Shown here: positions 27,071 to 27,700 of the stretch, piece by piece
Layout of the letters: each line of letters begins with the position of its first letter
Numbering within the stretch: position 1 is the stretch's first letter
Source of the DNA: a phage
Sequence record: PZ583738.1
DNA: 64,000 bases
Reading direction: 5' to 3' (one strand)
Program-made: the position numbers and the translations under genes
The notes under the pieces: generated by a model
Databases searched by the model: none
Seen by the model: the letters and a program-made list of their open reading frames with translations, nothing else
What the model was told of the DNA's origin: nothing

Positions 27071-27098
27071 GCCCCTTCCGAAAGGTTGGGGCTTTTTT
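27071..27098 (+). terminator. rho-independent terminator
   Basis: GCCCC-loop-GGGGC hairpin followed by TTTTTT. Confidence 0.7.
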
Positions 27099-27121
27099 AT
27101 AAATCAACTAAAGAGAAATGT

Positions 27122-27676
27122 ATGAAACTGTTAAAATATTTGAGTTGGATTCTGTTAGTTCTGCTGGATTTTATCTCCATGATTCTGGCCGTTATCCTGG
27201 CTCCATTTGTAGTTCCGTTCCATAATAAAAAGACTGGTAAACTTCCGTTCGGGTTTGATTGGATGATGACTTATGATAATCCGATTGATGGTGACCGGGG
27301 TCATGTCGAACGTTGGTCAAAAATCCGAAAATGGCCATTAGGTGTTTACTTCCAACGAGTAGCCTGGCTCTGGCGAAACAAAGCATACAATTTTGCTTAC
27401 CACAAGCTCGGTCGTGATTGCAATTCAGAATTCCATTATAAAGGTAATCCTGATGTCGAATCTGGTTCCTCGGATAAAGCTCATCATGGATGGCTCTTTA
27501 TGTGGACGGACAATGCCTGGGGTGTTTTTGCTTCTGTTCCTTATCTTAAGGTCGGTGGAATCACCTTTTATCTGCGTGTTTATTGTGGCTGGAAGCTCAA
27601 GAGCCTTCTGTCCCGACCCATCCCTAAGGCTATGCTCGCCTTTCATATAAATCCGTTCCGCTTTTATAAGAACTAA
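27122..27676 (+). CDS. membrane-anchored protein of unknown function (moron-like unit)
   Basis: 184 aa from ATG 27122; N-terminal transmembrane helix (LSWILLVLLDFISMILAVILAPFVV); bounded by terminators on both sides; TATAAATC late-promoter-like element at 27098-27105. Confidence 0.5.
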   Translation: MKLLKYLSWILLVLLDFISMILAVILAPFVVPFHNKKTGKLPFGFDWMMTYDNPIDGDRGHVERWSKIRKWPLGVYFQRVAWLWRNKAYNFAYHKLGRDCNSEFHYKGNPDVESGSSDKAHHGWLFMWTDNAWGVFASVPYLKVGGITFYLRVYCGWKLKSLLSRPIPKAMLAFHINPFRFYKN

Positions 27677-27677
27677 C

Positions 27678-27700
27678 AGCCCGCAATGCGGGCTTTTTTA
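27678..27700 (+). terminator. rho-independent terminator
   Basis: AGCCCGC-AAT-GCGGGCT hairpin followed by TTTTTT. Confidence 0.75.

Follow-up and report, generated by a model that had tools for sequence, protein, structure and literature searches.

T4-type phages carry ORFan genes in promoter-early stem-loop (PeSL) cassettes (Arbiol et al. 2010, PMC2839356; Comeau et al. 2014, PMC4122927). In RB49 and phi1, an ORFan lies between two PeSL elements in one phage, and a single element is found in the other (PMC2839356, PMC4122927). The mechanism and the terminator activity of the stem-loops have been shown experimentally in these phages, and the flanking regulatory motifs are recombination sites, a point on which PeSLs were explicitly contrasted with morons (PMC2839356). 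Here we analyze a 64,000-nucleotide (nt) stretch of phage DNA (record PZ583738.1; the window), whose sequence marks its source as a virulent T4-like coliphage of the genus Gaprivervirus (Straboviridae, Tevenvirinae). At 27122–27676 the window holds a gene for a protein of the DUF7338 family, within an optional single-gene cassette of 601 bp between two hairpins. We tentatively propose, with confidence somewhat short of even, that the protein, expressed late and anchored in the inner membrane, is an accessory in lysis: a second protein of holin type or a helper of the holin or endolysin. The cassette comprises the following features.

27070–27098, + strand: upstream terminator-like hairpin with T6 (AGCCCC TT CC GAAA GG TT GGGGCT)
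27089–27101, + strand: 13-nt direct repeat GGGCTTTTTTATA, left copy, at one edge of the 601-bp indel
27098–27105, + strand: late-promoter-like box TATAAATC, differing from the T4 consensus at –6 only and overlapping the T-tract
27113–27116, + strand: Shine–Dalgarno-like GAGA, 5–8 nt before the ATG, identified by sequence
27122–27676, + strand: DUF7338 gene, 184 amino acids (aa), stop codon included, supported by its open reading frame (ORF), Pfam and PHROG matches and dN/dS
27678–27699, + strand: downstream terminator-like hairpin with T6 (AGCCCGC AAT GCGGGCT)
27690–27702, + strand: right copy of GGGCTTTTTTATA, the other edge of the indel

The ORF begins at ATG 27122 and ends with a TAA at 27674–27676. 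Residues 1–183 of its product match Pfam DUF7338 (PF24027) over profile positions 1–179/180 (E=8.3e-63; 211.8 bits versus a cut-off of 27), and phrog_2143, a group with function not assigned in PHROG, matches with E=4e-79. The ratio of nonsynonymous to synonymous substitution (dN/dS) is 0.06 in comparison with the VR20 orthologue and 0.04 with that of JS10. The ORF is therefore a real, functional gene under strong purifying selection. A longer ORF, starting at TTG-27044 and spanning the upstream hairpin, was rejected, as homologues all start at the equivalent of ATG 27122.

An earlier reading made from the sequence alone (the sequence-only reading) had set this ORF between two strong intrinsic terminators, and both hairpins held up on folding. 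The upstream one (27070–27093) has an outer AGCCCC/GGGGCT stem and an inner CC-GAAA-GG, followed by T6 at 27093–27098. Its minimum free energy (MFE) is –16 kcal/mol (z=–3.0), with 1 of 200 shuffles equally stable. A simple terminator scanner overlooked this hairpin because of its 2×2 internal loop. The third pair of its stem shows a compensatory change, C-G to G-C, between Gapriver- and Dhakaviruses. The downstream hairpin (27678–27694) has a 7-bp stem with six GC pairs and T6 at 27694–27699. It folds with an MFE of –12.6 kcal/mol (z=–3.7) and is the best + strand terminator call within a 7-kb region.

Comparison of related phages shows that the unit comes and goes. P896 and TH54 keep both flanking genes and lack the DUF7338 ORF; RZ, CJ20 and P479 keep that ORF and lack the 127-aa ORF upstream of it; phage 212 lacks both. 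What is missing from P896 and phage 212 is exactly the 601 bp between the copies of GGGCTTTTTTATA, a repeat present in two exact copies (0.16 expected at up to one mismatch). Their empty sites have one hairpin and then TTTTTTATACCCC, reading ...AGCCCCTTCCGAAAGGTTGGGGCTTTTTTATACCCCGAATAAATTTG..., a single composite element made of the upstream hairpin and the counterpart of the early-promoter/leader motif at 27738–27784. This pattern of filled and empty sites, as read from the sequences, fits what PeSL-type cassette shuffling predicts. In the Dhakaviruses (JS10, JS98-like), the full hairpin GGCCCTTCCGAAAGGTTGGGCC and its T-run stand on both sides of the gene, and the upstream hairpin copy is followed by GTATAAATA. 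By analogy, the Dhakavirus repeat looks like a stem-loop/late-promoter composite, a late-gene analogue of the PeSLs. In some Dhakavirus genomes (among loci L018–L022 and L100), both GGCCCTTCCGAAAGGTTGGGCC/T-run copies precede GTATAAATA. About 68 phage records have a copy of the gene at 80% identity or more, versus about 81 with a JS10-type T holin at the same threshold, so that the gene, though common in Dhaka- and Gapriverviruses, is not found in all of them.

The sequence-only reading had also noted a late-promoter-like element before the ORF, and such a box is indeed present. T4 late promoters have the consensus TATAAATA at –13 to –6 (PMC2988020, PMC1524935), from which TATAAATC departs at the last base, position –6. 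Between the upstream hairpin and the ATG, TATAAATC stands alone, with no early-promoter match. It is kept in the closest relatives examined (UPEC01, EAWsc9, RZ and locus L101). The box at the equivalent place is the canonical TATAAATA in VR20 and the JS98/JS10-type phages (Dhakaviruses), AATAAATA in an STP4-a-like phage and CATAAATA in Karamvirus. In four of five T4-like lineages, an xATAAATA box lies 16–30 nt before the gene start; in RB43- and Klebsiella-type phages the site has only a hairpin. Among T4 late promoters, 32 of the 50 listed are perfect, the remainder are mostly single deviations, and variants function in vitro (PMC2988020, PMC1524935); A at –13 is a known tolerated variant (PMC2988020). 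Transcription from TATAAATC would start near 27111 and give an 11-nt leader. From these sequences we reasonably infer late expression of the DUF7338 gene, which would be unusual, given that hyperplastic-region ORFans were earlier reported to be mainly early (PMC1524935). The gene lacks the repeated early-promoter/leader motif of its neighbors. Two further promoter-like elements flank the cassette.

26610–26617, + strand: canonical late promoter box TATAAATA, assigned by motif position to ORF 26649–27032
27738–27784, + strand: sigma-70-type early-promoter-like motif (TGTACA-17-CATAAT) and conserved leader, serving gene 27819–28244

Because TATAAATC is off-consensus and its leader so short, read-through into the DUF7338 gene from the canonical promoter at 26610 is possible. 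A transcript from that box would meet the upstream hairpin.

The DUF7338 protein is rich in aromatic residues (W 5.4%, Y 5.4% and F 7.6%; 18% in all) and basic, with 25 K+R versus 12 D+E. Its main parts are listed here, with conservation among 177 diverse family members.

27137–27220, + strand: N-terminal transmembrane helix, about aa 6–33, from hydropathy, model and family alignment
27269–27295, + strand: motif T-Y-D-N-P-I-D-G-D, aa 50–58 (T50 and D52, 96% each; G57, 86%; D58, 80%)
27365–27394, + strand: helix motif W-L-W-R-N-K-A-Y-N-F, aa 82–91 (W82, R85 and N86, 99% each)
27587–27595, + strand: G-W-K, aa 156–158, in a long beta strand (97%, 93% and 92% conserved)

A membrane protein with one N-terminal helix and a Trp/Tyr-rich extracytoplasmic domain had been predicted in the sequence-only reading. 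The single helix (Kyte–Doolittle up to 2.75; helix 2–33 in the model) and the aromatic-rich C-terminal domain are borne out, and the extracytoplasmic location is likely. Position 16 of the helix (D16 here) is polar (D, S, N or E) in 135 of the 177 members, and Pro28 is found in 90%. Because of these conserved polar and proline residues, the helix appears to be more than a passive anchor. Conserved positions across the family are P28, L41-P42, W47, T50, D52, G57-D58, W82-L83, R85-N86, Y89, F91, G97, G108, G123 and G156-W157-K158, and the homologue from a Bacillus phage retains the conserved motifs. The invariant polar residues suggest ligand binding or catalysis. A very confident AlphaFold2 model built from a 37-sequence alignment (pLDDT 95.1, pTM 0.85) begins with helix 2–33 and continues with short helices up to residue 95, followed by five strands, of which three span 11–12 residues; the C-terminal domain is alpha+beta.

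Structure and profile searches returned little beyond the family itself. Foldseek searches of the model against the PDB gave no fold match; weak hits were enriched in hot-dog-fold thioesterases and dehydratases, with TM-scores of 0.1–0.2 and E>1, values on which we do not claim a hot-dog fold. A structure search of BFVD returned family members only, and a sequence-profile search of the PDB gave nothing meaningful. Scanned against Pfam to E<=1, the protein matches DUF7338 alone, and NCBIfam and PADLOC scans gave no match. DUF7338 is a family without a characterized member.

For topology, the net charge of the helix flanks favors N-in/C-out in 128 of the 177 members and the opposite in 19. Counts of K+R alone are higher on the N-terminal flank in 31 members and lower in 78. 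We consider it likely from these statistics that the protein is N-in/C-out with its C-terminal domain outside the cytoplasm, the same topology stated for a Felixounavirus homologue (PMC4392139). This domain is basic in 92% of members (median net charge +7). Two other identities were considered and set aside. The helix is strongly hydrophobic (L/I/V/F) and not Gly/Ala/Ser-rich, unlike a SAR domain. For a spanin, the modelled domain is alpha+beta where an i-spanin would be expected to form a coiled coil, and carrier genomes have spanins annotated at other places.

An exhaustive profile search found 919 representative clusters, nearly all of them single-domain proteins of 160–220 aa. A tblastn search located the gene in 587 phage records, and nearly all of these belong to large virulent myoviruses. 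Carriers include Gapriver-, Dhaka- and Karamvirus, RB43-like phages, T4-like phages of Klebsiella, Cronobacter and Enterobacter, Felixounaviruses and rV5-like phages, along with Aeromonas and Vibrio jumbo phages, a few Pseudomonas and Rhizobium phages and one Bacillus phage. In bacteria the family is rare: with the pattern used, 185,579 bacterial species genomes yielded four loci, one of them phage contamination, which leaves little prophage context. A metagenome scan with a narrow search pattern gave mostly the same lineages again.

To describe gene neighborhoods, we grouped 135 loci (L numbers) into 29 lineages at 70% identity and examined two genes on each side; the high-GC loci L066, L077 and L082 were hand-curated before scanning. 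A peptidoglycan hydrolase lies within two genes in 7 of the 29 lineages, where by our rough estimate about one is expected by chance, and these hydrolases belong to four enzyme classes. In 15 jumbo-phage loci from two clades, a GH19-type endolysin gene (phrog_181, E=7e-62) is directly upstream. In L082/L083, the DUF7338 gene and a SAR-type lysozyme gene overlap as ATGA, the stop codon of the former sharing bases with the start codon of the latter. The order in L090 and L077 is DUF7338, small transmembrane protein, Phage_lysozyme, with candidate spanin ORFs (judged by sequence features only) after Phage_lysozyme in L077. In L066, DUF7338 is followed by Phage_holin_8, Phage_holin_3_7 and Peptidase_M23, and in L136 Peptidase_M15_3 is two genes downstream. 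In an STP4-a-like relative of T4, gene e lies 0.9 kb downstream. Tail-fiber or tail-fiber-assembly genes are directly upstream in about six lineages (L006, L066, L082, L090, L011 and L085), four of which also have a lysis-gene context. One of the tail-fiber lineages is a Mu-like Chitinivorax prophage in which DUF7338 is the last phage gene, at the extreme end.

Other contexts were seen as well. In L014, L023, L028, L034, L036, L040, L012, L054, L057, L085, L087 and L092, the gene is within or beside a tRNA array, on the same strand. These loci span unrelated groups: Felixounavirus, Karamvirus, rV5-like phages, a Cronobacter T4-like phage and some jumbo phages. This context may reflect insertion hot spots or the spread of one module made up of tRNAs and the gene. 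We set aside a functional link to tRNAs, since accessory genes are known to concentrate in such arrays and the association is absent from jumbo and temperate carriers. In Salmonella phage Mushroom (L014, KP143762.1), the GenBank tRNA strand is opposite to that given by ARAGORN, which places the tRNAs on the strand of the DUF7338 and terminase genes; the deposited tRNA annotation looks like a strand error. Frameshifted or split copies of DUF7338, apparently decaying, lie beside an nrdG-like gene in an IMG/VR viral contig (L064, 3917–4554) and a metagenome contig (L125, 868–1499). In jumbo phages with the endolysin–DUF7338 pair (L067, 4028–5989), the next genes encode, among others, a 468-aa protein with a signal peptide and a 155-aa secreted protein that resembles, by eye only, a SleB-type cell-wall hydrolase. 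These genes suggest a larger envelope-directed cluster.

We prefer a lysis role to superinfection exclusion because of the gene neighborhoods and the late-type promoter. Hydrolases of four classes near DUF7338 are what would be seen for membrane-step lysis proteins such as the Mu releasin family, which are independent of endolysin type (PMC9239132), and late expression is characteristic of confirmed holins (PMC9239132). Annotators of Mushroom, from a phage lysis group at Texas A&M, independently called the homologue a class-III holin with one transmembrane domain in a 'T4-like lysis system' (PMC4392139). This label, an annotation and not an experimental result, has been copied into some GenBank records. 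In a curated Felixounavirus record of the BASEL collection, the endolysin and spanins are named, no holin is, and the DUF7338 gene is left hypothetical. Literature searches on Felix O1 and Felixounavirus holins turned up annotation statements only, and no experiments.

In the model we propose, the 601-bp unit would be gained and lost by recombination between the 3' halves of hairpins that share GGGCTTTTTTATA. The upstream hairpin would shield the gene from incoming transcription. Its own transcription would probably be late, from TATAAATC, perhaps with some read-through from the 26610 promoter, and the transcript would end at the gene's own downstream hairpin. The protein would insert in the inner membrane by its N-terminal helix, most likely N-in/C-out, so that the basic, Trp/Tyr-rich alpha+beta domain, whose invariant polar residues cluster much as in an enzyme, would face the periplasm. 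In that position it could aid lysis by supplementing the holin T and endolysin e that the phage encodes, either as a second holin of class-III topology or as a regulator or helper of the holin/endolysin step.

Several observations weigh against a lysis role. In most enterobacterial carriers, the window included, the gene lies in or near tRNA arrays and not beside lysis genes; gene e is 8.4 kb away in the window, and the flank examined in the Mu-like prophage has no lysis genes. Nearly every lysis context has another holin candidate. Moreover, holin T is next to asiA in Gapriverviruses both with the cassette (TH41, CJ20, EAWsc9 and others) and without it (P896, TH54), and a T orthologue is next to asiA in Dhakavirus genomes too. 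On account of these other holin candidates, and of a holin T that is there with or without it, the DUF7338 gene is dispensable and is probably not the primary holin gene. The box TATAAATC is off-consensus with a leader of only 11 nt, and the topology rests on charge statistics that are ambiguous by K+R alone. Polar residues invariant from Gram-negative to Bacillus phages are atypical of holins. No similarity in sequence or fold was found to holin T, RI, Mu releasin or any PDB entry, and in the library searched no paper mentions DUF7338. Finally, adjacency to tail-fiber genes in about six lineages suits an exclusion gene equally well.

Superinfection exclusion, the function suggested in the sequence-only reading, found no specific support: there is no exclusion-family match, the box is late-type and the neighborhoods contain lysis genes. 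We regard it as unlikely. On this view the periplasmic domain would stop an incoming myovirus, whether as an inhibitor of the tail lysozyme (like T4 Sp), as a barrier to DNA transfer (like Imm) or through masking or modification of an envelope component. An optional, strain-variable gene would be in keeping with other competition genes, and nearly all carriers are contractile-tailed. The positions directly downstream of tail-fiber genes and at the end of the Mu-like prophage also suit this idea; the receptor-blocking gene cor sits next to tail-fiber genes, and T5 llp lies beside the receptor-binding protein gene. The topology, too, would be like that of T4 Sp, which has an N-terminal anchor or signal and a periplasmic domain. 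Yet the protein matches no Imm, Sp, PADLOC, Pfam or NCBIfam defense or exclusion family, and no PDB sequence or fold (presence of Sp and Imm structures in the libraries was unchecked). Exclusion must act within minutes of infection, whereas the gene has a late-type promoter and no early one. Motifs kept across hosts with unrelated receptors, Bacillus included, argue against receptor-specific masking. Coupling to endolysins of four classes would be unexpected unless the protein inhibited lysozymes, and the variety of classes disfavors an inhibitor.

An envelope-directed enzyme or ligand binder with no direct part in lysis, remodelling the host envelope during infection, seems to us no more probable than exclusion. 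The near-invariant T50, D52, D58, W82, R85, N86, Y89, W157 and K158 (in the 177 members) resemble a binding or catalytic pocket, in a domain that is aromatic-rich and basic (median net charge +7). Candidate substrates common to Gram-negative and Gram-positive hosts would be lipid II, undecaprenyl phosphate, peptidoglycan or phospholipid. Neighbors with cell-wall functions are frequent (Tlde1-like, SLT and, by eye, the SleB-like ORF), and the weak fold hits are dominated by hot-dog-fold, lipid-binding and beta-barrel proteins. But no known catalytic motif was recognized and no family match found, and such an activity would not by itself explain the endolysin adjacency and late promoter. Still less likely is a bona fide primary holin of class III type, as some GenBank records have it; this is a narrower version of the lysis-accessory reading and overlaps it, so that the two probabilities do not add. 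It would account for the class-III annotation in Mushroom, for the lack of any other annotated holin in the curated Felixounavirus genome, for the 'holin slot' overlapping the SAR endolysin gene in L082/L083, and for the one strongly hydrophobic transmembrane domain with its conserved polar residue. Against this, holin T is present in the Gaprivervirus lineage, where the DUF7338 gene is dispensable, and holin-like proteins occur alongside in L066, L090, L077, L136 and jumbo phages. The family also falls outside Pfam Phage_holin_T, the fold is unlike the T C-terminal structures 6PSK, 6PX4 and 6PXE, and the N-terminal tail has 5 residues versus roughly 30 in T.

If the lysis-accessory reading is right, it would give a function to a family found in hundreds of therapeutic-type phages (T4-like, Felix O1-like, rV5-like and jumbo), whose members are now labelled 'hypothetical' or, on no evidence, 'holin'. 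It would also supply a concrete candidate for the unidentified holin step of Felix O1-like phages, in which DUF7338 may be the missing holin or a holin partner. A bolder version, which we consider doubtful, is that DUF7338 represents a new widespread class of membrane-tethered, periplasm-facing lysis-module proteins, with an enzyme-like pocket and a fold absent from the PDB, acting with holins and with endolysins of whatever enzymatic class, across Straboviridae, Felixounaviruses, rV5-like phages, jumbo phages and also one Bacillus phage. If the lysis reading is wrong, the gene would be just another accessory ORF of a region in which these genes are commonplace. Natural isogenic pairs that differ in the gene exist, for example TH41 or UPEC01 (with it) versus P896 or TH54 (without it).

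The 1.7 kb around the gene is 98% identical to Escherichia phages TH41 and UPEC01 and 95–97% identical to other Gapriverviruses. Gene order in the window is 2, 3, 1, 57A, 57B, ipI-like genes, tRNAs and e.x genes. Two landmarks bracket the locus.

26004–26156: two tRNA genes, about 1 kb upstream of the DUF7338 gene
36068–36556, + strand: gene e, T4-type endolysin, 67% identical to T4 lysozyme

From the positions of the tRNA genes and gene e and from the gene order, the locus can be assigned to the tRNA-to-e hyperplastic region of a T4-like phage, with gene e 8.4 kb downstream of the DUF7338 gene in the same region. A second lysozyme-like coding stretch in the window (16612–17103, – strand; 41% identity to T4 e) most likely represents the lysozyme domain of gp5, a baseplate protein. 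The 127-aa ORF upstream of the cassette (26649–27032), which has the canonical TATAAATA at 26610, is itself a variable module and has no PHROG or Pfam match. RZ and phage 212 (loci L004 and L005, 2820–3000 in each) have about 200 nt in its place, ending in a tRNA-like 3' arm (GGTTCGAATCCCGG). Downstream, 27819–28244 and 28697–29140 are paralogues (cross-matching phrog_9997 and phrog_18416) that share an identical 31 nt (28203–28233 = 29096–29126); the annotation of phage EAWsc9 calls them rho-N-domain and H15-domain proteins. The motif at 27738–27784 is one of four or five copies in the region (repeat families D1 and D2), and sigma-70-type promoter-plus-leader repeats of this kind precede the genes starting at 24279, 27819, 28327, 28697 and 29247 (families D1, D2 and D6). 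The shared motif, ..[C/T]ATAAT[G/T]AT[T/C]CCATACTGAGTTAC..AAATAAA..GGAGAATAAAATG, occurs at 24225–24258, 27738–27784, 28257–28331, 28626–28700 and 29152–29226. It thus precedes at least five consecutive small genes and resembles the PeSL early-promoter elements of RB49/phi1.

Set beside the PeSL system, the DUF7338 cassette is alike in its hyperplastic location, in having a single non-essential ORF bracketed by stem-loops of terminator type, in the two elements at the filled site and one chimeric element at the empty site, in a crossover inside or next to a stem-loop, and in neighboring genes with repeated sigma-70-type promoter/leader motifs. It differs in its 5' element, a late-type box (TATAAATC; TATAAATA in sister phages) fused to the hairpin T-tract; no strong sigma-70-type early promoter with an AT-rich upstream element serves the gene. 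The repeats differ in length as well: the shared repeat here is 13 nt, whereas in Dhakaviruses the whole hairpin and T-run of about 25–30 nt is duplicated. Mini-circles and recombination, if they apply to this cassette, are suggested by its sequence alone. In T4-like phages, the hairpin-plus-late-promoter cassette would then be the late-gene counterpart of the PeSLs, with hairpin-mediated modular shuffling operating with a late promoter. The sequence-only reading had likened the layout to a moron; the moron concept is that of Juhala and Hendrix for lambdoid phages. The likeness stands insofar as the unit is self-contained, accessory and present or absent between near-identical phages: a terminator-like hairpin and an insertion between otherwise adjacent genes are seen, with TATAAATC as putative promoter of an autonomous promoter–gene–terminator unit. 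But morons were defined in temperate phages and are often expressed from prophages, whereas the phage here is virulent, and they probably arrive by illegitimate recombination, whereas here flanking regulatory repeats appear to mediate the indel (PMC2839356). A PeSL-like cassette with a late-type promoter is the more precise description.

Among membrane proteins, holin T (class III) resembles DUF7338 in having one transmembrane domain close to its N terminus, a large C-terminal domain with a predicted periplasmic location, a promoter of late type and a similar size (217 versus 184 aa), and lysis genes are scattered, not clustered, in T4-like genomes. With one transmembrane domain and about 150 aa after it, DUF7338 could have the layout of a class III holin; its orientation by charge is mixed. 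Unlike T, it has almost no cytoplasmic tail; its motifs are conserved across distant phages to a degree far beyond what is usual for holins, and it coexists with T and is dispensable. The two have no similarity in sequence or fold; the T C-terminal domain structures were in the PDB copy searched, and none matched the model. Sp, Imm, Cor and Llp are, like DUF7338, small envelope-located phage proteins dispensable for growth. They have no homology to it and are expressed early, and Cor and Llp are outer-membrane lipoproteins directed at one receptor each, whereas DUF7338 is conserved across hosts with unrelated receptors.

Mu gp25 releasin (DUF2730) is a late, membrane-tethered, non-holin lysis accessory encoded near endolysins of several classes (PMC9239132). 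It has N-out/C-in topology and a 73-aa acidic domain in the cytoplasm, and it is confined to Mu-like phages, whereas DUF7338 is probably N-in/C-out with a basic domain of about 150 aa and occurs mainly in large virulent myoviruses; a Pfam scan of our protein gave no DUF2730 hit. What the two would share is an N-terminal transmembrane tether, conservation of the whole protein, transmembrane domain included, as a family, late expression, and a position a few genes from endolysins of several classes, SAR endolysins among them. By analogy, releasin appears to be the closest conceptual precedent for DUF7338, which, if the lysis reading is true, would be a further non-canonical lysis component like Mu releasin and the disruptins.

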